From positions 224,001-288,000 of IMG/VR virus record IMGVR_UViG_3300029288_005873: 64,000 nt of DNA; one strand, given 5' to 3'. The notes under the pieces were generated by a model, which was not told the origin of the DNA, searched no databases, and saw only the letters and a program-made list of their open reading frames with translations. Of this stretch, positions 6,700 through 61,309 are shown in pieces. The translations under genes were made by a program, and so were the position numbers. This DNA comes from a virus. Lineage: Duplodnaviria > Caudoviricetes. Positions within the stretch are counted from its first letter, which is position 1. Every line of letters begins with the position of its first letter.

Positions 6700-8205
6700 T
6701 TATGCTCTCGGCTGCTCCGTTGTGACCATGTAGCCGTCCTTGTCCACGATGCGTCTTCCAGACGCCGCCCCGATGGCGGAAGCCTCATCCTCCCACAGGC
6801 TCTCCACCCTTAGGTTGTCCGACACCACGGCGAAGAGACCCAGATGTAGGCGTCGGGAGTATGTCCTTCCGACCAGACCTCGGAAGTCCCCTCTCGCCGG
6901 AAGTCCTCCGATGGGACCGCAGGTCCCTTTCTCCAGAGCCGAAGGCTCCTTGATCTCTTCGGCAGGAGCCGAAGGCTCCTTGACCACGACCTCGTCCTTC
7001 ATGAAATTATCCCACGCTTTCGCCAGCTTCGCGGGCTCCCCTTCGGATACACCGAAGTTCAGCTTCAACTGCCGGAGAACCAACAGTTTCACGCAGCTTA
7101 GCTCCATGCCGGGGATGCTCAGGTTCCTGTACCCGGCACCCTTCTCCGGTTCCCCCTTGACTTTCTTTCCATCCACAAGAAGCGTGGGCTTGGGCTGTAG
7201 CTGAATCCTCACCTTCCTGCCGCCCTTCGGACGAGCAGACCCTCTCTCGACAGCCGACCGATGCTTCGTTCCAGCAACATCCCTGATCACGGATAGAACG
7301 GCGAATACATCATCGGGCGAGGCTCCGTCCACCTCGCAGTTACCGGCGTACACATAGTCGCCGTTGAAGTACTCGGTCAGCTGTACCCTCGTGTTCATTC
7401 CGCCTTCCTTGATAGGTGCGGAGCCGGCGCCTTGGCTGACCGCGGCGGCACTCCCATCTAGCTCGAGCTCACCAGACAGGGGGGATGCGCCGGGTTCCTT
7501 CGGCGCCGGCTCCGCATTCGGCTGCGAGGGCTCGGAGCCGGCGGCGGGCTTGGGCGGAGGAGGGTTGTTGATCGGAAAACCCCAGTCATCGTAGTTTGGT
7601 CGGAACGGAGGCTCGCCCGGTTTTCTCACCAGCGGAGGCGGAGCCTTCTCGTCCTCTTCATCCTCTGGGTCGAACTTGCGACCCGACCTCCACCCTGCTG
7701 CCATCTCCAGCCGGTCCAGCACCCCATCGGATGCCTCCAGAACCGACCTGGCTGCCCCCAGGTTTGCATCCGATACCGCCAGAAGCTCCCCAACATTCGC
7801 AACCGACAGGACCGCCTCCACGGACCTCACAGTAGCCTCGGGCGCCATGCGCCCGCCCCTCAGGTTCCACGGATCGGGCGTGTTGCGAACATCGATCGGG
7901 GCGGAGGCCTTGGGCATCCTGAACTCCCCAGAGTTCCCAGATGCCACACACACCTTCCCGTTCCCGCAGGACATCTCCACGTAGTCCTTGTATCCCCAGC
8001 AGGGAGCCGTAGCCGGCTCCCGGACTTTCCCCTGCGGAACCGTGAGGCTGCGGTCGGTCAACCACGCCTGCTCGTCAACCTCATCAGATAGGGCAGGACC
8101 GTAGGCATCCATGTCCCACCTCTCCGGTGCCTCGACATGGGCTCGGTCATGAAGCTCGTCGCGAACATCGTAGCCGGACACTACTTGGCGCATCTTTTTC
8201 TCCAT
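6700..8205 (-). CDS. Hypothetical protein with a Pro-rich linker
   Basis: 501-aa ORF at the left edge of the GC-rich island. Confidence 0.65.
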   Translation of the reverse strand: MEKKMRQVVSGYDVRDELHDRAHVEAPERWDMDAYGPALSDEVDEQAWLTDRSLTVPQGKVREPATAPCWGYKDYVEMSCGNGKVCVASGNSGEFRMPKASAPIDVRNTPDPWNLRGGRMAPEATVRSVEAVLSVANVGELLAVSDANLGAARSVLEASDGVLDRLEMAAGWRSGRKFDPEDEEDEKAPPPLVRKPGEPPFRPNYDDWGFPINNPPPPKPAAGSEPSQPNAEPAPKEPGASPLSGELELDGSAAAVSQGAGSAPIKEGGMNTRVQLTEYFNGDYVYAGNCEVDGASPDDVFAVLSVIRDVAGTKHRSAVERGSARPKGGRKVRIQLQPKPTLLVDGKKVKGEPEKGAGYRNLSIPGMELSCVKLLVLRQLKLNFGVSEGEPAKLAKAWDNFMKDEVVVKEPSAPAEEIKEPSALEKGTCGPIGGLPARGDFRGLVGRTYSRRLHLGLFAVVSDNLRVESLWEDEASAIGAASGRRIVDKDGYMVTTEQPRA

Positions 8206-8240
8206 GGGGTCCGAAGGACCCGAAAAGGTTGATCCCCCAG

Positions 8241-8888
8241 CTACCCCTGACGCTTCACTGTCGTCCTGCCCGGCTCCCTATCCAGAACCACAAGACCTCG
8301 CCTCATCGGCTCAGGCCTGGACTTGTCACCAGCTGAGAACTTCCATGCCTTGCCGTCTCGCGAACACGTCGGGTTACGACACTCGAAGCCATCCGCAGAC
8401 CTGCTGACCGACCACCTCTGACGGCAGTTCGGACACTTCGGCATCGTCTCAGACGGAGGTCCCGATACCATCACCATCTCTATCCCCCTATCCTCCTTGC
8501 CGCCCATGAAGTCCAGCACTCGATCAACATGCTTACACTCGTCTTCGGAACAAGGCGGTCCGCCCGGCTTCCTGCCATCACAGCACATCGAGGATACTAC
8601 CACACCATCCTTGTATGACAAGGACACGTAATGCATGATGGGAAACCACTTCACCCATCCGCACTCCCTCTTGTCCTCGCTACACCTTCCGTTTTTCAGG
8701 CATCCGTGGCACGTCGGATGCCAGTCAGAGACGCGGTATGCCCTGCTCCCCGTCCCAAGCCCGGCGGGAGCTTCGGGCTTAGGAGCCTTCGGCTCCTTGC
8801 CCATGATTCGGTCGATCGCCGCCCCTGTTTCCGCCAGCTTCGCCATCGTGGCAGCAAGTCTGGACCTCAGAACGTCAGATCGCCCCAT
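8241..8888 (-). CDS. Cys-rich zinc-binding protein (SWIM-like CKH and CxxC motifs)
   Basis: Start re-set to MGRSD (AAGGAGG SD). Contains CHGC, C..C..ECKHV and CPNC...C...C. Confidence 0.55.
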   Translation of the reverse strand: MGRSDVLRSRLAATMAKLAETGAAIDRIMGKEPKAPKPEAPAGLGTGSRAYRVSDWHPTCHGCLKNGRCSEDKRECGWVKWFPIMHYVSLSYKDGVVVSSMCCDGRKPGGPPCSEDECKHVDRVLDFMGGKEDRGIEMVMVSGPPSETMPKCPNCRQRWSVSRSADGFECRNPTCSRDGKAWKFSAGDKSRPEPMRRGLVVLDREPGRTTVKRQG

Positions 8889-8987
8889 CGTTTCCTCCTT
8901 GGAATCTTCGGGCGTTGCCCTTGAAAACCTCAATACTCTGTGGGTCTCAAGGGCAGCCCCCGAAGGGCTGCTTAAATTCACTATCGT

Positions 8988-9406
8988 ATTTTGGAGTCAC
9001 CGCTTAGTGCCAGGTCATACCATTCCTCTTCAGGTTAGGTTTTTCCTATTCGCACATGCGCTTCTCGCAGTTCTAGACGTGAATTTTTGAAGCTACAACC
9101 TAGGGCCAGGTCATACTCTTTCCCTCGTTAGCAGGCTTTACAACTCATACCATATACACCTATATGGTACACACATACGCTTATATAAGTTTTAAACATG
9201 AATTTGGAGTTATAACCTAGGGCCAGGTCATACCTTTTCCCTCGTTAGCAGGCTTTACAACTCATACCATATACACCTATATGGTACACACATACGCTTA
9301 TATGTTTTAAACATGAATTTGGAGTTATAACCTAGGGCCAGGTCATACCTTTTCCCTCGTTAGCGTGGATTTTGGGGTCTCTCCATTCGCCCATGCGCTT
9401 CTCGCA
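8988..9406. repeat. Non-coding tandem repeat region (115-117 bp unit with internal palindrome)
   Basis: Units start at 9097, 9214 and 9329 (AACCTAGGGCCAGGTCATAC...), with a degenerate copy at ~9005. Palindrome TACCATATA-CACC-TATATGGTA at 9148 and 9265. A separate 22-bp direct repeat lies at 9048 and 9385. Confidence 0.9.
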
Positions 9407-9559
9407 ATCTTTGATGCTAAACAAAGACAAGAAACCACAGGTTACTTCGGGTGCTCTCGCCACGGCATTTGGTTTTTCCTTACGGGCATTAGTGCCCAAC
9501 TGCCTATGACTTCGATATACAAACTTCCCCTCGGGTCCTGCCTGCTGCCTCCCCCTCAG

Positions 9560-9655
9560 TGGCACCAAGTGGGTTTGAACCACCAGCCCTCTCTGTCCGA
9601 GAGTCGGATACTCGGGACCGGAGCCCCGGTTGCCCGCCCCTGTGGCGGTGGTGCC
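9560..9655 (-). ncRNA. tRNA-like RNA (acceptor stem plus T-arm, no recognisable anticodon arm)
   Basis: GGCACCA/TGGTGCC-A acceptor, GGTGG-TTCAAAC-CCACT T-arm and three internal GC-rich hairpins. Confidence 0.55.
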
Positions 9656-9658
9656 GAA

Positions 9659-9699
9659 ACGGTGGGACCATAACCCTCGTTAAGCTATGGTCCCACCGT
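9659..9699. other. Perfect 14-bp inverted repeat downstream of rpsL
   Basis: ACGGTGGGACCATA-13nt-TATGGTCCCACCGT. Confidence 0.75.
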
Positions 9700-9715
9700 G
9701 CTGCTCAACACTTCC

Positions 9716-10120
9716 CTACTTCTTCGCCCGCTTCACCCCGTACTTGCTCCTGCTCTGGTTCCGGGGGTTCTTCTCACCACCGTTGCGGACCGTGTCTCCC
9801 GCAGCATCCGTCCCCTTGGCACCACGCACGATGTGATACTTCACACCGGGCAGGTCCTTCACCCTGCCGCCCCTGATCAGCACCGTCGAGTGCTCCTGCA
9901 GGTTGTGCCCGATTCCCGGGATGTACGCGATCACCGTGATCCCGTTCGACAGCCTCACCACCGCCACCTTGCGGTTCGCGGAGTTCGGCTTCTTCGGACC
10001 GACGGTGTACACCCTCAGGCACACACCCTTGCGCTGCGGACATCCCTGAAGCGCTGGCGCCTTGGATTTGTTCGCCAAACGCTTCCTACCTTGCCTCACC
10101 AGCTGGTTGATCGTCGGCAT
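9716..10120 (-). CDS. rpsL: 30S ribosomal protein S12 (uS12), stand-alone
   Basis: MPTINQLVR..., [42 protein letters not shown]. True start at 10120 (134 aa) with a GGAGG SD. Confidence 0.97.
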
Positions 10121-10442
10121 CTCCGTCCTCCTCTTCCTGAAGCATTGCGTCGATTTCCTCGATTTCATCCTCCGAGACACCATTGTCCAGGAGGATTTTC
10201 CTCATTTCCTCGATACTACACTCCTCGAGCACGATCTCCCTGCGATCACCCTTCTTCGCAAGGATGTGGTCCAGCTCCTTCTCATGCTTCGCCGCCTCGT
10301 GCCGCAGACGGTTGACGCACGAAAGAAGCTTCTCGTTCTTCACGTGAGCCTTCTTCAGAAGATCCATCATCTCCTCGGCCATCGATGATACCGTTGATAC
10401 CGCATCCAGACGCTCCGTGACCGAACTCGAATTCGAACCCAT
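10086..10442 (-). CDS. Hypothetical coiled-coil/acidic protein overlapping the rpsL start
   Basis: AAGGAG SD; 118 aa. Confidence 0.65.
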
Positions 10443-10481
10443 CGCTCATCTCCTTATCGGGCTGTAATCCTCACGTCCCTT

Positions 10482-10545
10482 TCCATCCCTCTGCGTTTTC
10501 ACGGGCTTGGGACCGTCGTCCCTTTGGGACGGCCGCATTGATGGA
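10482..10545 (-). ncRNA. Twister ribozyme (type P1), copy A
   Basis: UCCAU CAA UGCG GC CGUCCC-AAA-GGGACG ACGG UCCCAAGC CCGU GAAAA CGCA GAGGG AUGGA. P1, P2, P3, P4, the conserved L4 UCCCAAGC and the GAGGG pseudoknot partner are all present. Confidence 0.9.
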
Positions 10546-10760
10546 GCCCGCCTAGCGCCTGGATGCGCATCGGCGGGCGGCACGGATATGTGCCTTGTGC
10601 GCTCCCCAATTGTATGATCCGCATGTCGGGGAATGTCTTCCTCTCGCTTAGCGGGGAAGCTCTGTCCCATGCGGACCGCCCCATGTAGACTGTCCGCTAG
10701 CTGGGGCGCAAATGCCAGCGGACCAAGTATGCTCAAATAGTGACGGGAATCTCATTCCCT
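10546..10760 (-). ncRNA. Candidate multi-stem structured RNA upstream of twister A
   Basis: Several GC-rich stems (GCCCGCC/GGCGGGC, GGCAC/GUGCC, UCCGCAUG/CAUGCGGA, GUCCGCU/AGCGGAC) and no credible ORF. Confidence 0.4.
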
Positions 10761-10801
10761 CATCCCTTCTGATGCTGTAGCTATCAGCACCTATTTTTTC
10801 G

Positions 10802-11224
10802 TTAGTTCATCTTGGCGTCCATGGCGGCAACAACATCTGCCGCCATCTCCTCTACCGCCTTGTCGATCCCCATCTCATCGATCATCTCTTGGGCGCTGTC
10901 AGACAGACACATGACATTGACACCCTCCGGCACTAGGTCCAGGTCCTCCTCAGTGAAGAACCCAGCCTCGACCTTGGCGCGGTTCGGAGAGGCTAGGACC
11001 AAGTCCCTGTTGGGCATCTCCACCAGAATGCCGTCGTCCATCAGCTCCACAACCGCATACAGCATCTGTGACCGTCCGAGATCGTCCGAGCACATGTCGC
11101 AGAGCACCTCGAACGAGAAAGGCGCTTTCCTGCCCTCCACCAATCCGAACAGGAAAGCCTCCAGAACCTGGCTCCTCATTGTCTGATACCCGAATATCGC
11201 CTCTTCCGTCCTGTAAATCTTCAT
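10802..11224 (-). CDS. Hypothetical protein (possible winged-helix-like N-terminus)
   Basis: 140 aa with a GGAG SD. Confidence 0.6.
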   Translation of the reverse strand: MKIYRTEEAIFGYQTMRSQVLEAFLFGLVEGRKAPFSFEVLCDMCSDDLGRSQMLYAVVELMDDGILVEMPNRDLVLASPNRAKVEAGFFTEEDLDLVPEGVNVMCLSDSAQEMIDEMGIDKAVEEMAADVVAAMDAKMN

Positions 11225-11267
11225 GGTCGTCTCCCCTTGTATGATGAGGTGGACTCTCCCACGATCT

Positions 11268-11633
11268 CTAGCGCACTTTGAATCCAGCCTCCATGCATTT
11301 CCAGCGCGGAACTTCGGCTCCTACGGAGCCCATGAACCGTTCCGAGAGAAGCCGCGCTGAGAATTCGTCCCTCGTCATCGCGAACGCCAGAACCGCACAC
11401 CACCCCTCCTGCTTGGCCAGGTCCATCGTCAGCAGCTCCATGGGAATGCTCCTGGCGCTGGACAGGGAATTGTTGTCCGTGTCGCTGAGCTTCAGCAGCA
11501 TCTCCAGACCGCTGAGGACCTGTTCCATGTGCGATTCCATGGCATCATCGGTCACGTTATTGCTGACCCAAAGCCGGAGAGACACTACCAGTCCAGCTAT
11601 GAGATCCCTGTTTACCGGAACCATGACTTTCAT
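11268..11633 (-). CDS. Hypothetical protein
   Basis: Start re-set to MKVMVP (AGGAGG SD). Confidence 0.6.
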   Translation of the reverse strand: MKVMVPVNRDLIAGLVVSLRLWVSNNVTDDAMESHMEQVLSGLEMLLKLSDTDNNSLSSARSIPMELLTMDLAKQEGWCAVLAFAMTRDEFSARLLSERFMGSVGAEVPRWKCMEAGFKVR

Positions 11634-11720
11634 GTCGTTCCTCCTAGGGTTGTACACCTTTCCAGGAAAATTTCTCCTGGACCGAAATGCCGATCTGAGT
11701 TTTGGGAAAAACGCTAAGGC

Positions 11721-11948
11721 TCAGAAGTCAGAGTGCTCCTTTGTGCGGTAGTTAACCACATCCTCCACAAACTCCTGAATGGAACCTACCCACACTTGGA
11801 TATACTCCGGCAGCCCGAAGGGACGAATTATGTTCTCTGGCTTTGTCCCCTCTGGCACCACACCCAACAGCTCGGGTGAACTGTATGAGCCGCCTATCCA
11901 GCAAACCACGAGCGGTTTCGGTTTGACACGTCTTACCTTGTCAGCCAT
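11721..11948 (-). CDS. Hypothetical protein
   Basis: 75-aa ORF. Confidence 0.55.
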   Translation of the reverse strand: MADKVRRVKPKPLVVCWIGGSYSSPELLGVVPEGTKPENIIRPFGLPEYIQVWVGSIQEFVEDVVNYRTKEHSDF

Positions 11949-11986
11949 GGCTTTAACACCTTTTGGCTATTTTTCAGCCACGCATT

Positions 11987-12016
11987 AAAAGCCCCCCAGG
12001 AGGTATTCTGGGGGCT
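11987..12016 (-). terminator. Probable intrinsic terminator
   Basis: GC-rich hairpin (GCCCCCAG...CUGGGGGGC) followed by UUUUA on the minus strand. Confidence 0.55.
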
Positions 12017-12053
12017 CTATGGCTCCGGGTCCTGCGGACCCATCCATGCTTTT

Positions 12054-12260
12054 CTACGTCCCCGCCGTTTCCGCAGCCTCATTGAGGGCTCGGGAGATCC
12101 TTTTGCTGAGCTGGGTCGGGGTCATATTCTCCAAGGCTGCCTCCAGGAGGTTGCCTGCTGCTTCGAGGAGGGTTCGTGTTACGCGATCAAGTTCCAGCTC
12201 GGCGATTGTCCACGTCTCCGCCATCATGGTAGCGACGCTTTCCCTCTGCTCTTTGGTCAT
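12054..12260 (-). CDS. Hypothetical protein directly downstream of twister B
   Basis: 68 aa with an AAGGA SD. Confidence 0.6.
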   Translation of the reverse strand: MTKEQRESVATMMAETWTIAELELDRVTRTLLEAAGNLLEAALENMTPTQLSKRISRALNEAAETAGT

Positions 12261-12284
12261 GGCGTTGTCCTTTCACCTACATTT

Positions 12285-12350
12285 CCCCACCCCTCCGCAT
12301 TTGCACGGGCTTGGGACCGTCGTCCCGAAGGGACGGCTGCGTTATGGGAG
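12285..12350 (-). ncRNA. Twister ribozyme (type P1), copy B
   Basis: CUCCCA UAA CGCA GC CGUCCC-UUC-GGGACG ACGG UCCCAAGC CCGU GCAAA UGCG GAGGG GUGGGG. P2 shows compensatory changes (CGCA/UGCG) relative to copies A and C. Confidence 0.88.
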
Positions 12351-12417
12351 GGGCGCGAGGCGCCCCTTTATGTAGGACCTCCGGTCCTTGGTAGGGGAGT
12401 TGTAGAGCTTCTAGCTC

Positions 12418-12882
12418 TTAGTCGGTGGTGGGGCGCTCGGCGGGGCGGTCGTCGTCCCAGGTATCGGAGCCGATGGCGACGACGGAGCAGCTGAGCTGGA
12501 GGGCGAGACCGGCGACAGTGGCTTTGCCGTTGGCGTAGAAGCCGCACTTGCCGGAGGCGAAGATACGGGCGGTGGCGACGGTCTGGTCGATTTTGAGGGA
12601 CTTGAGGGTCTGGGGCTCGAGGGCGAGGAACTTCTGGATATCCTCGTCCTTGAGGCGTTTGGGGTCATCGGGCTTGGAGTGGGCGAGGGTGACGTTGAGG
12701 GAGACCTGGAAGGTCTTGGGCTCTCCGGCGACGTCGAGGGTGACCTTGCCGTTGTGGTTGAACCCCACCGAGCCGGTGGAGTTGGTGCGGGGCTCCATGG
12801 CACCGACGCCCAGCTGCTTGAGGCTGATGCTGCCCATGGTCAGGACGTCGCTCTTGAACCCCTCGGTCTGCTTCTTCGACAT
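12418..12882 (-). CDS. Hypothetical protein with an internal duplicated beta-rich motif, flanked by twister ribozymes
   Basis: Repeats PRTNSTGSVGFNHNGK...QVSLNVTLAHSK and ARIFASGKCGFYANGK...QLSCSVVAIGSD. AAGGAG SD and strong GC3 codon bias. Confidence 0.75.
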   Translation of the reverse strand: MSKKQTEGFKSDVLTMGSISLKQLGVGAMEPRTNSTGSVGFNHNGKVTLDVAGEPKTFQVSLNVTLAHSKPDDPKRLKDEDIQKFLALEPQTLKSLKIDQTVATARIFASGKCGFYANGKATVAGLALQLSCSVVAIGSDTWDDDRPAERPTTD

Positions 12883-12923
12883 GGTACATTCTCCTTCGGG
12901 ACCTTTGGTCCCATGTTAGGGTT

Positions 12924-12988
12924 GCGCCCCTCTGCGTTCGTCCGGGCTTGGGACCGGCGCCTCACCATTGAGGCGGCCGCATTGGCGC
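12924..12988 (-). ncRNA. Twister ribozyme (type P1), copy C
   Basis: GCGC CAA UGCG GC CGCCUCA-AUGG-UGAGGCG CCGG UCCCAAGC CCGG ACGAA CGCA GAGGG GCGC. P3 and P4 covary with copies A and B. Confidence 0.92.
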
Positions 12989-13086
12989 TGGAGGGGTTGA
13001 GTATCAGAGCCCCCTCCGGGCTCCGGGGTTGGGCCAGGCTATGCGCCCCCTTCCAACCACTGGCGGCGTCCCGCCAGATGAGATGT

Positions 13087-13266
13087 CTATCGCGTGATTC
13101 CCATCAACTGCTCGGCCTTCCTCGTGTTCCTGGTCCTGTAGTGGAGGGGGCGGCATTTATTGATGTCCCCAGCAGCCCTCCTACGGCTTGGCGGACAGAT
13201 CTCCACCTCCACCGTTTGCCCATCAATCACCTCGATGCGGACATTCTTGGCTTTCATCGCCTTCAT
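13087..13266 (-). CDS. Small basic hypothetical protein (59 aa, below ORF track cutoff)
   Basis: MKAMKAKNVRIEVIDGQTVEVEICPPSRRRAAGDINKCRPLHYRTRNTRKAEQLMGITR, just downstream of a promoter-like repeat. Confidence 0.5.
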   Translation of the reverse strand: MKAMKAKNVRIEVIDGQTVEVEICPPSRRRAAGDINKCRPLHYRTRNTRKAEQLMGITR

Positions 13267-13290
13267 CCTTGGCAGCGATTTTCCCTCGCG

Positions 13291-13331
13291 GGTTCAAAAC
13301 ATCCGCGGAAATTTTTCGCTGCAAAAATTTT
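13291..13331 (-). promoter_or_regulatory. Duplicated promoter-like element, copy 1
   Basis: Near-identical to 17421..17464. Minus strand reads A/T tract, TTGCAG, 17 nt, TGTTTT. Confidence 0.55.
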
Positions 13332-13396
13332 TCATCCATCGCGCAGGATCTTACTGTTCCGGGAAACTCCTGTGGCAATTACCTCATTTGAGCCTC

Positions 13397-13915
13397 CTAG
13401 GGAAGGATGAGGACTTCACGAAACATAGACCATGTTCCTGGGGCATAGAACCTAATACAATGGTCTATGACGGGATCAATGCTGAATGGGTCCATAAGGA
13501 CCGGTTTTCCGTCATTGTTCAGCATGACCTGAAGGTCTTGTGGCTCCATGTCGTGGTCCAGGAGAGTTTTGGCTATGACCTTCATGTCACTCAGAATCGG
13601 CTCCCAACCTCCTATTGCGTTTAGCAGGGGCATGACGGCGGCAGCCGCATTCCATCCATAGAAGGCGTCCAGGATTTCGACGGTCGGCACGAAGGGGCGC
13701 ATCCTATCCAGGCAGTTGTGTTCCTTCTTCAGTTGGACTGCGTGCTCGGTCAGCGCGACCGCCCGGTCGCCACTGGCGTAGACCAGCTTGTACCCACCTT
13801 CGCCCAGCCAGCGGGAGAACGGGTGCGCTTCCACGATTCGGCGGACACCCGTATCCGTGATGAGCTGTGCTACCCATTCTGGGGCATCTGGGAGTAGGAC
13901 CTCTTGACGCACCAT
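13397..13915 (-). CDS. Minimal protein kinase-like protein
   Basis: Gly-rich loop LGEGGYKLVY, helix-C Glu (KKEH), catalytic loop-like QDLQVM and DG..VLMDP. Confidence 0.6.
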   Translation of the reverse strand: MVRQEVLLPDAPEWVAQLITDTGVRRIVEAHPFSRWLGEGGYKLVYASGDRAVALTEHAVQLKKEHNCLDRMRPFVPTVEILDAFYGWNAAAAVMPLLNAIGGWEPILSDMKVIAKTLLDHDMEPQDLQVMLNNDGKPVLMDPFSIDPVIDHCIRFYAPGTWSMFREVLILP

Positions 13916-13916
13916 G

Positions 13917-14180
13917 TTATTCCACCTGTTCTAGCTCTCCGATGGAGACGGAAAGTGTGTGGAAGTTAAAGTTGGACCTCAGGAAACCGGAAGCGTCCAT
14001 GACTCGTTCTCCGCGCTCCCAGGCAGCGATGGTGTTCCAGTTCCCGCAGACTGACTCGAACTTGACCTGAACCGGAACGAACGTGTTACCCGTATGGGCG
14101 ACGACCCGTCCCACCTTTGTACGTTTCCCATCGGTCGAACGCCAGATGACCATGGAGCCGATGGCAGGAAGGCTTGTCAT
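13917..14180 (-). CDS. Hypothetical protein (SH3-like beta pattern)
   Basis: 87 aa, ATGA-coupled to the upstream gene. Confidence 0.5.
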   Translation of the reverse strand: MTSLPAIGSMVIWRSTDGKRTKVGRVVAHTGNTFVPVQVKFESVCGNWNTIAAWERGERVMDASGFLRSNFNFHTLSVSIGELEQVE

Positions 14181-14653
14181 TCCTGCACGATGTGGGGTCC
14201 CTCGTGGTCCTTTGCCGTGCGCCAGCAGTAGGTGCGCCCTTCGAGGGTAATATACATTCCAAGCTCATCCTTGCCGGTGAAGGTGCCGTACTGGACGACT
14301 CGGTTCCAGACTGCCATGGATACTTTCTCCATGACCGGGAGGATGTGCTCGGCATTAATCTGCTTCACCTGAGGACGGACGCTTTCGGCAAAGAGAGCGT
14401 ACGCCAGGCTTTCGGCGTCTCCTTTGGTGGGCGCGTTCATTTCCATCTTGATGGTGACCAGGAAGCGTTTCATGATGGTCATTCCTTTCTGGTGTCCGTA
14501 GAACAGGAAAAACATACAGGAGCTGCCATAGTGCTCCAGCCGCAGCTTCCTGGAGATGTCGCATTTCCCCTCGATGCGAACTCCCATGCACGAGGTTTCC
14601 ATACCCATGTACTACCAGTGAGCACAGAAGTTACAGGTGTGTCTGTTGTCCAT
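14177..14653 (-). pseudogene. ORF with an in-frame TAG at codon 14 interrupting a CxxCxHW...C...C zinc motif
   Basis: ATG 14653 with an AGGAG SD reads MDNRHTCNFCAHW*YMGMETSCMGVRIEGKC... in frame with the 14177..14608 ORF. A further SD-supported start lies near 14473-14482. Confidence 0.45.
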
Positions 14654-14661
14654 GGCTTCTC

Positions 14662-15000
14662 CTACGGCTGGACGGGTCCCTCGGCGAAATCCTGGCGCGC
14701 CTCCAGGTCGATCTGGCGGTACCGCGCCATCTTCTCCTCGTAGTTGGGCTGGCGAGGGAGGTACTGACCGGCGTCGCCGAAGTCCTCCAAAGGGCAGCAG
14801 GACTCCATGCAGCTGACATGGTCGAGAACGTTCAGGAAATACCAGGCAGCCTGGTCAGCGTCGTTCAGCATGGGGCGGAACCCGAGGTACGACGGAGCCG
14901 TCTCGGGGAGCTCGAACCGGCGAAAGAAGTAGCCGTCGAAGTTGCTCTTGTTCAGGACAGCCACGTATCTCCTGCTGGGGGACACCATGTTCTTGGTCAT
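14662..15000 (-). CDS. Hypothetical protein
   Basis: AAGGAG SD; 112 aa. Confidence 0.6.
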   Translation of the reverse strand: MTKNMVSPSRRYVAVLNKSNFDGYFFRRFELPETAPSYLGFRPMLNDADQAAWYFLNVLDHVSCMESCCPLEDFGDAGQYLPRQPNYEEKMARYRQIDLEARQDFAEGPVQP

Positions 15001-15030
15001 TGGTTCTCTCCTTGAGGGACCTGCGGTCCC

Positions 15031-15702
15031 CTACTTGCGGTTGAACTCCTCGTAGTTCTTGAGCTGGGGGTCGTTGTCCTCGCCCCACCGCTGGTTCAGA
15101 CCCCGCTCCAGGAACAACTCCTCCTGGAGATGCGCCCATTCGATCGCCTTGGTGGCATTAGAGATGCTCGCTCTTACCAAGGCGGTACCGATTTCGTCAC
15201 TATCCCAGCACTCGTCGATGCTGGAACAGGAGCCGCGCCCCACCTTCGGGTCCAACCTGATGGCTTCCACCAGAGCGGGCATGTTGACCGCAGCTTTCCA
15301 GGCGGTCAGCGCCGCGCAGTCAACCGTCCGCTGCCACAGGCACTCATCGCACTTGGCGCACTTCGCGCAGGGGTGTACTACTTGCTTCACCTCGCGGGTC
15401 GCGAACCAACCCGCATCCGGGTTGTGGGTCTCCTTCCGGAACTCGGAGAGGTCGGCAGTGTAGCCACCAGAGCAGCGCAGGCACTGACTCCACCACGCGC
15501 CATTCTGCTGAACCTTCCAGCCACGGATGACGACCTGGTTCTTCAGGGTCGGATGAACCTCAGGAGCGCCACACGTCGGACACTCCATCGGCGTACCCTG
15601 AACGTGGAACCGCTCGGTCTGGCTTACACTGCCGCACATGCAGGGAAGCGCCCAGGAGGGACGCGCTACGCCCAGCAGACGACCGCACTTTGCGCACCGC
15701 AT
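15031..15702 (-). CDS. Cys-rich hypothetical protein
   Basis: Multiple CxxC motifs; AAGGAGG SD. Confidence 0.6.
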   Translation of the reverse strand: MRCAKCGRLLGVARPSWALPCMCGSVSQTERFHVQGTPMECPTCGAPEVHPTLKNQVVIRGWKVQQNGAWWSQCLRCSGGYTADLSEFRKETHNPDAGWFATREVKQVVHPCAKCAKCDECLWQRTVDCAALTAWKAAVNMPALVEAIRLDPKVGRGSCSSIDECWDSDEIGTALVRASISNATKAIEWAHLQEELFLERGLNQRWGEDNDPQLKNYEEFNRK

Positions 15703-15716
15703 CAGAGGCCTCCTTG

Positions 15717-15896
15717 CTAGAAAGACACCGGCTTCCTGTCGAGTACGACCATCTCGTGAATCCTGGCCGAGTCGATACCCGACTCCTTCGCAGCCAGGAC
15801 CAACGTCCTGCTGTACATCTCGCTGTCGCCGTCACGCAGATAACGGCGAAGCAGGTTGATGTACAACACCGTGGCGTACGCTTTTCCGGGCTCCAT
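15717..15896 (-). CDS. Small hypothetical protein (59 aa, not in ORF track)
   Basis: MEPGKAYATVLYINLLRRYLRDGDSEMYSRTLVLAAKESGIDSARIHEMVVLDRKPVSF with a GGAGG SD. Confidence 0.6.
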   Translation of the reverse strand: MEPGKAYATVLYINLLRRYLRDGDSEMYSRTLVLAAKESGIDSARIHEMVVLDRKPVSF

Positions 15897-15968
15897 GAGA
15901 ACCCTCCCGAGTTGTTGCGACCCCCCCTATGAAACCTGGGTCTTTGTTGGGATTTTCGATCGGTTTTG

Positions 15969-16229
15969 CTAGCGCACCCTCGTCTTGGCGGCGAGGATGG
16001 CCGCGATCGCAGCGCGGCGCAAAGGTCGCGAGCGACCCGCAGCCTGAAGCGCCTCCATGAGCGGCGCCGCCTTGGGAAGCGCCAGGTGAAGACGCGACCG
16101 AGCGGTCAGCAGATCACGGTCAAACTCACCCGCAATCATGCGGTACACCATGGTGTCCTTGAGACCCGCACGCTCGAGGCGGTTGATGAACCTGTACGCC
16201 TGCGTCCTGAAAGGGCACGTCACTCTCAT
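15969..16229 (-). CDS. Hypothetical basic protein
   Basis: AAGGAGG SD. Confidence 0.6.
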   Translation of the reverse strand: MRVTCPFRTQAYRFINRLERAGLKDTMVYRMIAGEFDRDLLTARSRLHLALPKAAPLMEALQAAGRSRPLRRAAIAAILAAKTRVR

Positions 16230-16308
16230 GTCTCGACCTCCTTGGGTTGGGTAAGCACCTGAACGATTTCAGGCACTTACCGAGCCTAAAGCTCGGTCGA
16301 TTAGGACG

Positions 16309-16695
16309 CTAAGCGTCCTTGTCCGCATCCAGCAGGTCGCGCTGAATGCTGTCCACCTCAGCTAGCACTTCCGCCAGCCGCTGCTCCAACTTGACCAACT
16401 GGAGACCACGCTTCAGGGGCGTCATGTCCTCGTCCGCCTTCACACGTTCCAGTCTCGCATGAAGCACGCGGGCTGTCGCCATCAGCGAAGTCACTCGCCT
16501 CTCAGGCGTTAAATTCCCCGCCTTGAGGTCATCCGTGTTCTCCACGCCACGCCCTACCGCCCTACCACCCACTAGCTCCTCCAGCCGCTCGGCGCTCTGG
16601 TTCTTGATGTTGCTCGCCCTCGTCGCAGAGCGCCCGCCCCTCGGGCGGATTTGCTGCTGCTCCACGTACCCGAACACCACCTTGACGTCAGCCAT
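16309..16695 (-). CDS. Hypothetical coiled-coil protein
   Basis: AAGGAGG SD; overlaps the upstream gene. Confidence 0.6.
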   Translation of the reverse strand: MADVKVVFGYVEQQQIRPRGGRSATRASNIKNQSAERLEELVGGRAVGRGVENTDDLKAGNLTPERRVTSLMATARVLHARLERVKADEDMTPLKRGLQLVKLEQRLAEVLAEVDSIQRDLLDADKDA

Positions 16696-17374
16696 CGATC
16701 TCCTCCTTGGCGAAAGCCGCTCGGCACGCCTCCCGCCTCGCCATCATGACGCGCCGCGCCTCCTTGGCAGCCCGGCGCTCCGCCCTGGCGTTGCGATCGG
16801 CGTACCCATTCGGATCGGTACGCCGCCACTTCTCCCCCATCTCCGCCGCTCGAGCCGCCTTGCGCTCCTTGCGGTTCTGCTGAGCCTTGTGGCTCATACC
16901 CGCTTGGTCCAAGATCTCGCCGCAGCAGAACCCGTAGCCGTACCACTGCTCGCTGCTCGTCGCCCTTAGCGCCAGTGCGACTGGGGTGATGATGGCGCGG
17001 GACGGTATGGAAGGCGGGTACACTATGTCAGCCGGAGTCTTGATATATCGTTCCGGCACTACGGGCTGTATCATCTCCAACCAATCAGAGCGGAACACCA
17101 TCTGGTCCGCTATGGCTGTGATGGCATAGCCTTCGCGCGAACCATTACCTACGCGCGTGGGCGCTCCCATCTCGCGTGCCTGTTTGGCCAGACGCCCATC
17201 CACGCTGCCCTCCCACTTCGCGACAAACTTGCGTCCCAGGCCCGCTACCCAGCGCGCCACCCTTCCTAGCGCCTGGGTCTCGTTCTCCGCCTCCACCATC
17301 CCTACCACCTTGGTGGGGAACCGAAGGGCATGGCAAAGCAGGATTGCCTGGTTCAGGATGACATACCGTAGCAT
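16688..17374 (-). CDS. Hypothetical protein with an Arg/Ala-rich C-terminus (first gene of the GC-rich island)
   Basis: Probable start MLRYV. Confidence 0.55.
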   Translation of the reverse strand: MLRYVILNQAILLCHALRFPTKVVGMVEAENETQALGRVARWVAGLGRKFVAKWEGSVDGRLAKQAREMGAPTRVGNGSREGYAITAIADQMVFRSDWLEMIQPVVPERYIKTPADIVYPPSIPSRAIITPVALALRATSSEQWYGYGFCCGEILDQAGMSHKAQQNRKERKAARAAEMGEKWRRTDPNGYADRNARAERRAAKEARRVMMARREACRAAFAKEEIDG

Positions 17375-17420
17375 CTCGCTCCCCTTTCCGCTGCCTTGCC
17401 TCAAGGCGCAAGGCTGGCAA

Positions 17421-17464
17421 GGTTCAAAACATCCGCGGAATTTTTCCGCTGCAAAAAAATTTTT
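17421..17464 (-). promoter_or_regulatory. Duplicated promoter-like element, copy 2
   Basis: GGTTCAAAACATCCGCGGAA.TTTT.CGCTGCAAAAA is shared with 13291. Confidence 0.55.
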
Positions 17465-30534: not shown

Positions 30535-33500
30535 CTAACCGGGCGGAGCACCTAGATTTTTTGTTTTTACATCTAAAGATGATGGAAAATGTGGAGGACG
30601 ATCATCCCATGATATATTAGAATTTGATTTATCAAGCATATCTTTTACAGAATTTACCATTAAACGAACAGCTGCGATCCAACGATTCTTTTTATTAATC
30701 TTCTTTGAACCAATTTTGTAGAGAATTTTGAATATTCTAGAATATTCAAAAGAAACTGTTGAAAGATTAAGATTAGGATTTTTATTTTTGGCATCAATAT
30801 AACCAAAAAAATCTCCCTTAATCCAATATTTTAGGAAAATAAGACGTTCTTCTATAGTCATAGGTGCGGCTATTTCCCGCCATTTTTCTATCGAGTTGCG
30901 CAAATTAGATTGAAATTCAACATCTCGGAGTACATGGTTTATTCTATCACCTTTTGTGCTTGTATATGAACCGGGTTCTTGTTTATTCAAACGTCTTCGT
31001 TGATTTCTAGAAAGTGCCCATGCCTCTCCGCTAGGAGATATTTTGCGATTCCGAACAGACATTGGAGGCAATCCTGCTTGCATTTTCAATTTCAAAGCTG
31101 CTTTTAAGAGGTCTTGTGACAAATGTACCATTTCGTGTCGCAAAGCTGTTTCCAAAGTTGTAAGTCTAAAGTGTAAATTTTCAATTGTTGGAGGTAATCC
31201 TGTTAGAACTTCAATTGCTGGCCAAAAGCCTCCACTATTTTCAGTTGGAGCAAAGCCGGCAAAATATGCTGCACCTACATCTTTTGGGATTTTCGGTACC
31301 GCTCGAAGATAGTAATGCGACCATGGCAATTTTGTTATTAGATTTTCATATTTCCAACCAGAAATATCAATTGGAAGCTTTCTTTCCTGAGTTGTTAGAA
31401 CACCATTGCTAAAATATGAATAATCTTTAGATAATTCTACAAGTTTCTTTTCTAATTTTTCATATTTTGGATCATTTTCCGGAAGAATAGAAAGCCAAGT
31501 ACTAGCATACATTTTCTTAAGCCAGTCCCAAGCTTCATGTATCATTTTTGGTGGAATATCCATTAAAGCAGCAGCTTGCCGTTCCAATTTTGGTAATCCG
31601 AGCATCTCCTTATGGGATCCTCGCGGCATCGGAAGAGTAATTTGACGATAGGCACCGGGCATCAGGTCAAATCTACGCTCAACAGCATTATAGGCTTCAG
31701 GTTCGGTGTCCAAAAGCTTAGCAAAGGGGGTGCCATAAGTTGTGACCTCCGTCTTGCCATCTTCGTAGAACGTCACAAAACCCCTAGGCGCCTTCTTGGC
31801 AGCCTCTGAGGGTATTCCCAACTCATCAATAAGGGATCGATGATCAACACCTGGAATCTCAATTCCATCATGGACATTTCGTCTATAGACTAGCTTTAGC
31901 GCATTGGCATCCCAAATCCAGATAAATTCATCTAGGACACCTAGGCGACGCCCAGCATGCCTGGATATGGGAATATCATTTTCAAATTGCTCGAGGAATT
32001 CCTCACGCTCATTAGGATCCATTTCTGCCAGAAGTTCAATCTCTTCTGCTGTCATTTGGGAGCGTTTCCTTTTCGGACGGTCTTTTTGTTCTTCTTTGAT
32101 TTTTTTATCTAGCTTATCCCAATAATCCTCAAAAGCTTTTTCTTCCTCTTCTATCATGTGTGGCTCTAAATCAGAATCATCTATAAATTCCGCACGCTTG
32201 GAGATTGGTGGCTCCAACGATGCCAAGATGCCGCGTACACTCTTGCCTTCCATATAGTACTGCTCGATACGTGGGATAAGATATTGGTTCTTCAAGGTAC
32301 CAGGTTCATGCCCAACTTTCTTAGCTGCGTCAGCCAGGGCTTTCTTAAAGCGTTCTTTGAGCGCCTTATCCCTTTCCTTGCCTTCTTTAGGAAGCTTGCC
32401 TTTGCCATTCTCTTTTAGGGAACGAAGCATTTCCTTGTTGGCATGGAAACCTCTTATATCCTTGGCAGTCACCTTAAATGGGGCAAGATATGAATTTACG
32501 TCTTTAGCCGTAATACCAGCCAGAACGCGATCACTTTTCTTTTTATCCTTACAGGCGCGTTTTAGCGCATTAAGAACCTGCTTGGTCTTAACTTCCTTGC
32601 TTTGTTTCACTCCAGCTTTGCCCACATATTTAATAGTCGCTTTGCCCTTACCAAACGTTACATGGCGAAGCAGCCAGCCAGTTACTCCATAATGTTTTAG
32701 TTCGCTTGCCGATTCTTCATTTCCGATACGTTCATAAGTTTCATCAATGAGAGCAATCGCCAATGCCGAAAGGCGAGTTCGCTCATCATCGGACGAAAGA
32801 TCTTTCTTGACCTTAGCGCGCATCTTCTTGAGGGAACTATTAAGCCTCTTTAGACGTTGTTCTTTTTTACGATTACGCGCAGCAATATGCTTTTTATCAT
32901 AGAGATAAGTAATATTGCCAGATTCCTCTTTCTTTTTCTCTACATAAGCATGATCCTTTGCTCGTTTGGACAAAGGCTCAGAATATTCTATTGTCGAAGG
33001 TTTGAAAACATTATCAGCAAAGATGAGAGAAACAATTTTTCGCACAGTTTCGCGCCAACGAGATGGATTATCAGTACGAAGCCGATTAAGGGCAGGCGAA
33101 TCTAAAATCATTTTCTTAAGACCTTCGCGACGATCTTGTGAGGGCATGTCAGCCAATTTGGAGGTATAAAGCATGACGATTTCATTCAATCGCGGATAAA
33201 ATTCAATATCACGCAGATGATGCGGAAGCGCAACTCGTTCCTCATCAATCCTCTCTAATTGATCTTTTGAAAGACCCGTCATTGGTATATTTTCCACAGG
33301 TACGACTCCAGTGTAATGACTTCCTGGAATCTTATGCTTGCGAGAAGGTTCACCAATATCACCATATCCAGCCAGTTTTATCTCATCCAAAATTGTTTGA
33401 GCAACATGTGTGGCCTCGTGACGCGCAAGCATCAACACTCTCCGCACATACAAAACAAAACTGTTCATATCAGTTGGCACAAGCCACGATTCTGGAATAA

Positions 33501-34185
33501 TAAAATCTAAAACCCAATTTTTCCTAATCCATTTGCCAGTGTATTTAACATCTTGGTCAGGAATAGTGCGTATATGAATCTCTATAGCTGGGAAGGGAGT
33601 TACAATATCGCCAAGAGGACCTACTGTTTCGGAACCCCTCATATGTGGGGGTAACATTTCCAAATACTTCCAATTCGATAAATCCAACTCTACTTCATGA
33701 GAATCAGAAATTTTGGCAAACTTGGCGGCGGCAACTCGCACATCCTCAGGAGCTTCCCCATTTTTCACCAAAGCAGCATAATGCTGAACTAAGAATTTTT
33801 GAAGTGCCTCAGTGAAGACGGGCGGGGGTTCAAAAAGTCCCGCCAGTTTTGGTGGTATCATATCTGGTAGTTCTACCTCATATATTCCTAATGAGCCCTT
33901 AACTGGAAAAGGATCAATTTTACAAATATTAGACAGTTTCCAGGCAAATGCGGATGGGTATATTTCGCATTTTGCTTCTGACTCATCAGCCTTTGTCATT
34001 GGACGGCAATCTATAAGATTCGCTATAGCAAGGGCTTTTCCAGCCGGTTGTATATCTGGCTTAGCGGTTGAGACAATAAGCAAAGGACCACGATATTTGG
34101 TCCCCCATTTACGTGTCTCAATAGTCTTTTCCCCATTGGCAATCATGTTTGCCCAAGGTTGCTTGACTGAAAGAGCCTTTATCAT
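30535..34185 (-). CDS. Multidomain protein: ASCH + zincin-like + topoisomerase IB catalytic core + unknown + zincin-like
   Basis: ALSVKQPWA..I..GEK.IETR.W (ASCH); RHEATH..Q and RHEMVH..Q, each followed by H.LRD.EF; TopIB catalytic set in ERIGN, GKAG, AKDIR, GH and QY. Confidence 0.8.
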   Translation of the reverse strand: MIKALSVKQPWANMIANGEKTIETRKWGTKYRGPLLIVSTAKPDIQPAGKALAIANLIDCRPMTKADESEAKCEIYPSAFAWKLSNICKIDPFPVKGSLGIYEVELPDMIPPKLAGLFEPPPVFTEALQKFLVQHYAALVKNGEAPEDVRVAAAKFAKISDSHEVELDLSNWKYLEMLPPHMRGSETVGPLGDIVTPFPAIEIHIRTIPDQDVKYTGKWIRKNWVLDFIIPESWLVPTDMNSFVLYVRRVLMLARHEATHVAQTILDEIKLAGYGDIGEPSRKHKIPGSHYTGVVPVENIPMTGLSKDQLERIDEERVALPHHLRDIEFYPRLNEIVMLYTSKLADMPSQDRREGLKKMILDSPALNRLRTDNPSRWRETVRKIVSLIFADNVFKPSTIEYSEPLSKRAKDHAYVEKKKEESGNITYLYDKKHIAARNRKKEQRLKRLNSSLKKMRAKVKKDLSSDDERTRLSALAIALIDETYERIGNEESASELKHYGVTGWLLRHVTFGKGKATIKYVGKAGVKQSKEVKTKQVLNALKRACKDKKKSDRVLAGITAKDVNSYLAPFKVTAKDIRGFHANKEMLRSLKENGKGKLPKEGKERDKALKERFKKALADAAKKVGHEPGTLKNQYLIPRIEQYYMEGKSVRGILASLEPPISKRAEFIDDSDLEPHMIEEEEKAFEDYWDKLDKKIKEEQKDRPKRKRSQMTAEEIELLAEMDPNEREEFLEQFENDIPISRHAGRRLGVLDEFIWIWDANALKLVYRRNVHDGIEIPGVDHRSLIDELGIPSEAAKKAPRGFVTFYEDGKTEVTTYGTPFAKLLDTEPEAYNAVERRFDLMPGAYRQITLPMPRGSHKEMLGLPKLERQAAALMDIPPKMIHEAWDWLKKMYASTWLSILPENDPKYEKLEKKLVELSKDYSYFSNGVLTTQERKLPIDISGWKYENLITKLPWSHYYLRAVPKIPKDVGAAYFAGFAPTENSGGFWPAIEVLTGLPPTIENLHFRLTTLETALRHEMVHLSQDLLKAALKLKMQAGLPPMSVRNRKISPSGEAWALSRNQRRRLNKQEPGSYTSTKGDRINHVLRDVEFQSNLRNSIEKWREIAAPMTIEERLIFLKYWIKGDFFGYIDAKNKNPNLNLSTVSFEYSRIFKILYKIGSKKINKKNRWIAAVRLMVNSVKDMLDKSNSNISWDDRPPHFPSSLDVKTKNLGAPPG

Positions 34186-53537: not shown

Positions 53538-53604
53538 TGGGTAATTCCTCCTTGGAAAAAGCTTCCTACAACGCAATGCTCCGATATTGATAGGTTTTCT
53601 GTTT

Positions 53605-54063
53605 TTACCTTCCACGTCTAGAACGACGGAGATCACAACGCTGCTTTATCTCCATTACTTCATGATATTCTTTTACTGTTAAGGGGGTTGGCAAGATTGC
53701 TACTCCTCCTGCGCGACCACGGAGTTGTTCACGAGCATGTTGCTGAAGTCCTCCGAGTTTGGATAGATCGTCGTCGCCCGTCACACGTACAGCTACACAT
53801 TGTTTTCCAAGATCATCAATACTTCCAAGTACATCAAACTTCATAGCATATGATGTAACTAAAAAGCTGGTTTCGGGAAGCATATCAATCACAGTGGCTG
53901 TATCCAATTTGTCATTAACATCAATCAACTCATCCTCATCAGCAGGATGTTCATCACTTCCCACCCTCACAAGAACGATTTTACCTGCCCAATCCTTAGA
54001 AAGTATTTGTTCAATTGCTACGGGTATCAATTCGCCCTTGCGATTCTTCATAAAAAAGGACAT
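53605..54063 (-). CDS. Hypothetical protein
   Basis: Probable start MSFFMK. Confidence 0.55.
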   Translation of the reverse strand: MSFFMKNRKGELIPVAIEQILSKDWAGKIVLVRVGSDEHPADEDELIDVNDKLDTATVIDMLPETSFLVTSYAMKFDVLGSIDDLGKQCVAVRVTGDDDLSKLGGLQQHAREQLRGRAGGVAILPTPLTVKEYHEVMEIKQRCDLRRSRRGR

Positions 54064-61298: not shown

Positions 61299-61309
61299 TT
61301 CCTCTCCAA

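Follow-up and report, generated by a model that had tools for sequence, protein, structure and literature searches.

We show that a 64,000-nt stretch of tailed-virus DNA (bases 224,001-288,000 of the IMG/VR record IMGVR_UViG_3300029288_005873, referred to here as the window) carries a genuine phage gene for ribosomal protein uS12, the counterpart of bacterial RpsL, and that this uS12 is, as judged from sequence comparison and phylogeny, not a host allele but a member of a phage-specific uS12 lineage, which has representatives in several large phages that are only distantly related. It is a virus-encoded ribosomal protein set apart by its core decoding role, by a clade of its own and by a dedicated partner gene. 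uS12 tunes decoding accuracy, and we put the probability at roughly 0.55 that the phage protein would be built into 30S subunits assembled during infection and would there change the accuracy or kinetics of tRNA selection. We prefer this reading since the decoding-centre residues are invariant, the gene is under purifying selection and has a strong Shine–Dalgarno (SD) sequence, and it stands in the company of phage translation genes. Below, G000 denotes the whole record (441,904 bp), L-numbers denote related loci or contigs, and residues of uS12 follow E. coli numbering.

The uS12 gene and its product

A first description of the window from its letters alone (the sequence-only reading) had presented the gene as an intact rpsL with an SD sequence, which is what we find (Table 1). 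The product matches Pfam PF00164 (Ribosom_S12_S23) with 118.7 bits against a cut-off of 22.3 (E 1.3e-34), a match likewise recovered when the whole genome is scanned, and the gene has a third-position GC content (GC3) of 0.85. The protein shows both hallmarks of the family, an OB-fold beta-barrel and the conserved N-terminal extension (MPTINQL...). Its AlphaFold2 (AF2) model, built from 20 relatives, contains a five-stranded barrel (strands 29-40, 50-57, 62-67, 79-84 and 95-98) flanked by N- and C-terminal extensions of low confidence, and a Foldseek search of PDB with this model returns ribosomal uS12 chains at all of the top 50 places (template-modelling score ~0.6, E down to 2e-14).

Alignment with E. 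coli RpsL and 85 bacterial sequences, which served as the reference for all residue comparisons, shows that the window protein keeps P41-K42-K43-P44-N45-S46-A47, R49, K50, H76 and R85-V86-K87-D88-L89-P90-G91, and so bears out the earlier statement that K42/K43, PNSA, K87 and D88 are retained. Around the decoding loops it is altered (T39V, T40G, L48N, R53V and R93K), and one 12-residue stretch differs from its E. coli counterpart TTPKKPNSALRK; position 53, which is Arg or Lys in 85/85 bacteria, is Val here. The insertion of about ten residues that had been noticed before RSKYG proves to be 2 + 8 = 10 additional residues between A100 and R109, giving a length of 134 aa versus 124, and it is absent from every solved uS12, the PDB alignments having gaps at that site. 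Among PDB sequences the best full-length match of the window protein is chloroplast uS12c, and the decoding-loop segment alone ranks two algal mitochondrial uS12m chains first, each by a small margin; unlike the phage protein, the solved organellar chains lack the insertion. The sequence-only reading had suggested a further organellar likeness, SANRK in animal mitochondrial uS12. We considered a streptomycin-resistance allele and rejected it, K42, K87 and P90 being wild type.

A phage-specific lineage of uS12

In a search of 5.8 billion proteins, approximately thirty metagenomic sequences (67-83% identity) outrank every named bacterial uS12. On the contigs fetched for the top relatives (L002, L003, L006, L099 and L100) uS12 is stand-alone and never followed by rpsG; its neighbours there are small orphan genes or genes for an HNH or Endo VII nuclease, an amidase or an RNA ligase. 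IMG/VR holds six further stand-alone copies, on contigs of 11, 23, 96, 128, 158 and 193 kb, as well as five bacterial str-operon contaminants (L011, L012 and L014-L016). Phage homologues outside a str operon are known from L002, L003, L006, L008-L010, L013, L017, L018, L099, L100 and L105-L108. In the GenBank phage collection, tblastn finds only bacterial-type uS12 in mislabelled or contaminated records (50-72% identity). The G000 terminase has no detectable homologue in two of three complete uS12-bearing records and is 24% identical in the third, and we conclude that the uS12 gene is spread over different phage lineages. The sequence-only reading had allowed that the gene might match a host allele and have no phage homologues; instead the homologues are many, and the closest cellular alleles are only 68-75% identical to the window protein by BLASTP (70-77% over alignment columns).

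The phylogeny that the same reading had proposed supports a separate phage clade. In the main tree (maximum likelihood, LG+C20, insertion columns removed, the two longest branches, L017 and L018, left out) 32 phage-type sequences lie on one side of a branch with all sampled bacteria on the other, with an ultrafast bootstrap (UFBoot) of 97 and a Shimodaira–Hasegawa-like approximate likelihood-ratio test (SH-aLRT) value of 92; the split appears in 96% of bootstrap trees, and quick trees agree. The phage context was checked directly for 10/32 of these rows, the remainder coming from short contigs. A 209-row tree gives the same topological split but on a branch of zero length, and so without support, because ~120 columns are too few for so many rows. 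The tree names no donor or host. We tried as donors Myxococcota-like bacteria, which have an 8-residue insertion at the same site, and rejected them: they form their own clade (SH-aLRT 94, quick tree) that is not sister to the phage clade, and they fall on the bacterial side of the main split in the quick tree as well as in the main tree. On these placements the 8-residue insertion is taken as convergent, or at least uninformative on the donor.

Constraint and signature substitutions

Mean pairwise identity among 34 phage-type uS12 sequences is 68% (minimum 51%) versus 79% for 85 bacteria of many phyla, and the phage lineage therefore evolves faster. Nevertheless PKKPNSA, R49, K50, E75, H76 and RVKDLPG are invariant in 33-34/34 phage-type sequences, as decoding loops 1 and 2 are in 84-85/85 bacterial ones; D88 and the RSKYG motif are likewise invariant, and the phage-type sequences share the 8 additional residues before R109. 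Against this constant core stand substitutions that are typical of the clade: T40, kept in 83/85 bacteria, is replaced by K, N, G or E in 29/34; V takes the place of T39 in 28/34 (7/85 bacteria); L48N and G70D each occur in 16/34 and in 0/85 bacteria, which have L or M at position 48; R93K is found in 18/34 versus 4/85; and residue 53 is non-basic in eight of the 34 (the window has V, the three nearest relatives L) and in none of the 85. The proposed comparison of nonsynonymous with synonymous substitution rates (dN/dS) among phage homologues indicates purifying selection: pairs with the window uS12 give values of 0.15-0.35, and the remaining pairs reach 0.49. These are rough figures, since dS is 0.4-2.1 and near saturation.

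The exception to the invariance of the loops is L018 (K42C, K87P), a very divergent stand-alone uS12 (~50% identical) on a 158-kb IMG/VR contig that CheckV rates complete. RVKDLPG reads IAPDLRG in this protein, and its gene sits within a 46-tRNA array, with a transfer-messenger RNA (tmRNA) 620 nt upstream. Judged by these residues, the L018 protein cannot act as a canonical uS12.

R53 deserves particular mention. Error-restrictive rpsL alleles of E. coli and T. thermophilus affect K42, R53, R85, K87 and P90, and R53 substitutions in E. coli uS12 have been called extremely error-restrictive (PMC3884664). The window uS12 and its nearest relatives resemble these alleles in being non-basic at R53; they differ from them in being natural, clade-wide states in another sequence background, with K42, R85, K87 and P90 wild type. 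By analogy with the E. coli alleles, R53V would be a lead on phenotype.

The phage genome and the stand-alone context

G000 is a real tailed phage. CheckV rates it 100%, complete, and PHROGs identify a large terminase (phrog_675, E 2.4e-57; Terminase_6N is also over its Pfam cut-off), a portal (phrog_16240, E 1.3e-50) and a head maturation (prohead) protease (E 2.3e-15), whereas Pfam sheath and HK97 capsid profiles have no match in G000. The phage context assumed in the sequence-only reading is accordingly secure. The reading had also seen no rpsG, fusA or tuf beside the gene, and this extends to the whole 441,904-bp record, in which neither uS7 (rpsG) nor an EF-Tu/EF-G GTPase domain (GTP_EFTU) was found, so that the window uS12 is not a displaced str operon; its downstream neighbour is a tRNA-like element. 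Translation genes of G000 comprise 23 tRNAs, a tmRNA and a bS21 homologue, the last above its Pfam cut-off, and this phage therefore has at least two ribosomal protein genes. The host could not be inferred from the phage's PrkA, whose best cellular matches are 39-54% identical and scattered over Halothermothrix, Entotheonella, Chloroflexia, Acidobacteriota and others; since these matches name no host, there is no host uS12 for comparison.

A partner gene upstream of uS12

In most loci the uS12 start is overlapped by a partner gene encoding a 65-aa helical hairpin. Partner homologues lie directly upstream of, or overlap, stand-alone uS12 in L002, L003, L006, L008, L009, L010, L099 and L104-L108, and in all of these up to L099 the partner ORF (open reading frame) is known to end between 6 nt before and 79 nt after the uS12 start. 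A profile search of 5.8 billion proteins recovers only 13 partner clusters; every cluster looked up (L104-L108) directly precedes a stand-alone uS12, and one of them occurs on 20 contigs, drawn from several samples. Two findings mark the partner as a real protein: its dN/dS is 0.07-0.14 in four closer pairs and 0.28-0.38 in two distant pairs, and AF2 models it confidently as a two-helix hairpin (predicted local distance difference test, pLDDT, 94-96). The forms in the window and L002 add a small helical domain and an acidic tail; the 'ECRRSxS' terminus conserved in the short forms is the uS12 start in another reading frame. As far as gene arrangement can tell, the partner is translationally coupled to uS12 in most phages of the lineage.

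The partner has no match in Pfam, its scores in Atlas feature and structure searches are below useful levels, and a Foldseek search of PDB has no match at E<=0.001, its weaker matches being generic helical hairpins (e.g. HR1 and Rop). A joint structure prediction of uS12 with the partner scored 0.01, which counts neither for nor against binding. The partner represents a new small protein family, whose sole context so far is the phage uS12 gene.

RNA elements and neighbouring translation genes

A candidate twister-P1-like self-cleaving ribozyme, a full-length (1-68) match to the Rfam model with the conserved CCGGUCCCAAGCCCG core, lies 40 nt upstream of the partner start codon, and two further candidates occur in the same GC-rich island. 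Each of the three matches the model over its full length, occupies an intergenic gap and scores just under the gathering score, and the 442-kb genome contains no twister match beyond them. A twister also precedes the partner in the close relatives L002 (5761-5823) and L104 (1637-1698); none was found near uS12 in ten other stand-alone loci scanned (L003, L006, L008, L009, L010, L013, L017, L099, L100 and L105/L107). From the predicted position of the ribozyme, the partner–uS12 message is probably cut from a longer transcript.

The tRNA-like element downstream of uS12 combines a 7-bp acceptor stem and a T-arm with a variable arm of ~25 nt; the Rfam tRNA model does not match it even at E<=1, and it is not conserved in L002. 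Its class-II-like variable arm is anomalous on an Arg anticodon. In the 734-nt gap downstream of this element an AT-rich unit of ~116 nt is repeated in tandem three to four times, the inner copies being 91-95% identical.

In the relatives, uS12 is found inside or beside arrays of 14-46 tRNAs. A tmRNA directly precedes the cassette in four loci (Table 1) and lies <=7 kb away in L006, L099 and L105, while in G000 it is 14 kb from the cassette; release-factor genes are close by in L006 and L099. We considered a functional link between uS12 and tmRNA/SmpB and dropped it given that S12 makes no contact with SmpB (PMC3929946), keeping the adjacency as context. The L105 contig, which bears the partner–uS12 cassette, also has a match to the selenocysteine tRNA model, at 46.6 versus a gathering score of 47 bits.

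The GC-rich island

The cassette lies in an island that is the single composition block of its kind in the record, with a sharp right border, and in which all genes are co-oriented orphans: the 17 other island proteins compared with Pfam have no match there, and the island contains no integrase or transposase. Gene orientation is the same in the flanks, and the change in GC at the island edges coincides with gene borders. A megablast search of the GenBank phage collection with the island gave no match. Contigs carrying the nearest uS12 relatives have a GC content of 0.55-0.63, and one such contig, from an independent run and sample, is 90.8% identical in nucleotides to window 10001-11703. Outside the island, the low-GC backbone of G000 has many further genes in common with L002, L003 and L099, which are therefore related phages.

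A recurring intergenic motif of 28-44 nt, containing a small hairpin (CCGCGGAAATTTTTCGC...), occurs inside the island, in the backbone (G000 76185, 103479, 128533, 169622, 182210 and 210034) and at the right border of the island (G000 241421, window 17421-17462). It is probably a phage promoter or terminator element. The island was probably acquired from a higher-GC relative and may now be regulated as part of this genome.

Other features of the window

Other window genes encode PrkA, SpoVR, ribonucleotide reductase, ThyX, a PIN-PhoH protein and a topoisomerase IB fusion. The PIN-PhoH protein (806 aa) has a LAGLIDADG-type match in its middle, at residues 497-549, which suggests an intein or a homing-endonuclease insertion in the ATPase. 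PrkA (653 aa) and SpoVR (480 aa) are clustered with a 393-aa ORF in the manner of the PrkA/YeaH/SpoVR-type operon associated with bacterial stress and sporulation, and a 1216-aa protein joins an N-terminal ASCH domain to a eukaryotic-type topoisomerase IB catalytic core.

Table 1. Features of the uS12 region, the rest of the genome and related loci. Positions are those of the window unless a G000 or L-number prefix is given; a twister gathering score of 67.2 bits applies to all three candidates.
Feature	Position	Strand	Details
rpsL-like coding sequence, phage-type uS12, 134 aa	9716..10120	minus	Stop codon included; no internal stops; Pfam PF00164
Shine–Dalgarno AGGAGG	10127..10132	minus	6 nt before uS12 ATG (10118-10120); within partner ORF 3' end
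Partner gene, 118 aa	10086..10442	minus	Helical hairpin core, small C-terminal helical domain, acidic tail; overlaps uS12 start by 35 nt
Twister-P1-like ribozyme (candidate)	10483..10544	minus	Rfam RF03160, 65.1 bits, E 1.2e-14
Second twister-P1-like ribozyme (candidate)	12287..12348	minus	RF03160, 60.6 bits, E 7e-12
Third twister-P1-like ribozyme (candidate)	12924..12988	minus	RF03160, 59.5 bits, E 1.6e-11
tRNA-like element, 97 nt	9559..9655	minus	ARAGORN: Arg-CCG, long variable arm; 60 nt downstream of uS12 stop
Tandem AT-rich units	8990-9364		
GC-rich island holding uS12, 10.7 kb	6700..17404	minus	GC 0.53-0.65, GC3 0.62-0.92; flanks GC 0.44-0.48, GC3 0.38-0.62
Recurring intergenic motif inside island	13291..13332	unassigned (.)	28-44 nt; blastn copies elsewhere in G000
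ASCH–topoisomerase IB protein	30535-34185	minus	
PIN-PhoH protein	51219-53636	minus	
PrkA–ORF–SpoVR cluster	58678-63271	minus	
bS21 homologue	G000:C1:107508-107669 (locus L110)	minus	Pfam PF01165, E 1.6e-16
tmRNA of G000	G000:219262-219637		
tmRNA directly upstream of uS12 cassette in relatives	L003:9349-9794; L008:9146-9487; L013:1156-1509; L018:9055-9377		10-700 nt from cassette
Divergent uS12 of L018	L018:10001-10402		
Match to selenocysteine tRNA model	L105:1187-1270		

Alternative explanations

Considering the island first as an artefact, either a chimera made in assembly or contaminating cellular DNA attached to a phage contig, one can point to a composition jump that is unique within the record and to the str-operon contaminants present in IMG/VR. 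A cellular contig, one of the cases that the sequence-only reading had held against itself, is contradicted by the phage hallmark genes and by an island that contains no cellular genes and whose uS12 is of phage type and not a bacterial allele. The chimera, the other such case, we judge unlikely from the shared motif and the shared genes: the motif inside the island has seven other copies in and beside the low-GC backbone, the closest-relative contigs share many non-island genes with that backbone, gene orientation continues from the flanks into the island, and GC shifts at gene borders. Taken together, an artefact is the least credible of the explanations considered here. Scarcely more credible is that uS12 is passenger DNA, which arrived recently with a GC-rich segment of another phage and has no role of its own here; such an origin would account for the GC3 contrast between island and flanks, for the sharp right border and for the high GC of the contigs of the closest relatives, but not for an intact ORF with a strong SD, for purifying selection on both uS12 and its partner, for a cassette kept in phages with unrelated terminases or for the ~91% nucleotide-identical copy in an independent sample.

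As to function, the sequence-only reading had proposed that the protein may reprogram ribosome fidelity, may permit escape from a ribosome-targeting defence or may act as an RNA chaperone; it had not mentioned R53V, the partner gene, the GC-rich island or the tie to tRNA and tmRNA islands. An extraribosomal role, in which phage uS12 would serve as an RNA chaperone or RNA-binding factor (for ribozymes, tRNA-like RNAs or nascent rRNA folding) and would not replace host uS12, is in our view unlikely. It gains from the reports that uS12 aids T4 group I intron splicing in vitro and speeds uS4 binding in co-transcriptional 30S assembly (PMC10931766), from the location of the gene, which has a twister on one side and a tRNA-like RNA on the other in an island that contains three twisters, and from the relatives' position among tRNA and tmRNA genes. 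Yet non-specific chaperoning needs no invariant PNSA, K42/K43, K87, D88, P90 and H76 in a clade diverging to ~51%, and of the relatives only the close ones, L002 and L104, have a twister with uS12, the ten other stand-alone loci scanned having none. The invariant decoding loops and purifying selection would thus favour a role in the ribosome over a purely chaperone role. A little less likely still is target replacement, by which a variant uS12 would keep translation going under an abortive-infection toxin, a competitor ribotoxin or an environmental aminoglycoside. The clustering of changes beside the decoding loops (T38-T40, L48, R53 and R93) and the surface-loop insertion, with the loops themselves kept, would fit such a function, and the dedicated partner could be a delivery or protection factor; on the other side, K42, K87 and P90, where streptomycin resistance classically arises, are wild type, Pfam recognizes none of the island proteins, and target replacement would still require incorporation into the ribosome. 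We know of no defence system that targets uS12, which also counts against it.

A probable role in ribosomes made during infection

We therefore return to incorporation into the 30S subunit. Under this reading the twister just upstream would free the partner–uS12 message from a longer transcript, and phage uS12 would be made during infection and replace host uS12 in host 30S subunits as these are newly assembled. There the decoding loops would retain their catalytic geometry in altered surroundings (T40G, L48N, R53V, R93K and 10 extra residues near the C-terminus), and on ribosomes translating phage mRNAs these altered surroundings would make tRNA selection differ in accuracy or kinetics.

Several points weigh against this. 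uS12 is a buried interface protein of the 30S subunit, belonging to its late-assembling core, and could therefore enter only post-infection ribosomes, perhaps few of them; moreover, it would have to be compatible with the ribosome of a host that the PrkA matches do not name. The faster evolution of the phage clade would also fit a relaxed or altered function, not all phage uS12 copies can act canonically, given that L018 lacks K42 and K87, and the gene sits in a compositionally foreign island. For R53V, any effect is an extrapolation of what E. coli alleles do, and these stand in another sequence background. Finally, viruses have been reported to favour loosely bound, exchangeable ribosomal proteins (bS21, bL12, bL9, bL31 and bL33; PMC6375957), and uS12 is not of that kind.

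A bolder form of the proposal, which we advance only tentatively and hold to be less likely than not as a whole, is that the two-gene cassette of partner and phage-type uS12 swaps a decoding-centre core protein and thereby creates phage-specialized ribosomes with changed proofreading, e.g. of the restrictive R53 type, which would work with phage tRNAs, tmRNA and release factors, the partner being a dedicated escort or exchange factor. To our knowledge, bacteria offer no precedent for such a factor devoted to a ribosomal protein.

Relation to known systems and significance

Phage uS12 resembles bacterial RpsL of the str operon (rpsL-rpsG-fusA-tuf) in its PF00164 fold, with OB barrel and N-terminal extension, and in PKKPNSA, RVKDLPG, H76 and D88. 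It differs from RpsL in lacking operon partners genome-wide, in its separate clade and faster evolution, in the replacement of T40, in L48N, R53V, R93K and 10 extra residues, and in the overlapping gene ahead of it, for which bacteria have no counterpart.

Viral ribosomal proteins reported previously include bS21, bL12, bL9, bL31, bL33, uS9, bS6, uL11, uS15 and others (Mizuno et al., 2019, PMC6375957), and S1, S4, S21 and L7/L12 have been named in huge phages (Al-Shayeb et al., 2020, PMC7162821). PF00164 was among the search profiles of Mizuno et al., yet uS12 is not listed as found in viruses (PMC6375957), and our full-text literature searches for phage uS12 or rpsL returned nothing relevant. 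With these proteins uS12 has in common a ribosomal gene on a phage genome, a virus-specific clade, purifying selection and a presumed replacement of the host protein; indeed, in the sense of Mizuno et al. (2019), its viral copies cluster apart (clade support 97/92). Unlike them it appears in neither list, and it is a core decoding-centre protein with a dedicated partner, which agrees with the remark of the sequence-only reading that such a protein would be unusual among the mostly exchangeable ones in phages. A second comparison is with PhiMa05, likewise a large element presented as a jumbo phage with core ribosomal protein genes: 'six ribosomal proteins' were claimed for it (bS1, bL21, bL27, bL33, uL11 and uL1, and no uS12; PMC13157829), and its viral nature has since been disputed for want of a terminase or morphogenesis module, with the demand that viral status must first be shown (PMC13623518). 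Unlike PhiMa05, G000 has a terminase, a portal and a protease, and its uS12 is not of bacterial type.

Virus-encoded ribosomal proteins have so far been peripheral and exchangeable ones, whereas uS12 is the only protein at the site where codon and anticodon are checked, and here purifying selection conserves it in several large phages that are unrelated to one another, together with a partner gene of its own. If our reading is true, some phages would reach the accuracy-setting core of the host ribosome; it would become testable whether viruses build specialized ribosomes, and the effect on decoding of natural uS12 variants (at T40, L48, R53 and R93 and in the loop insertion) would be testable too.

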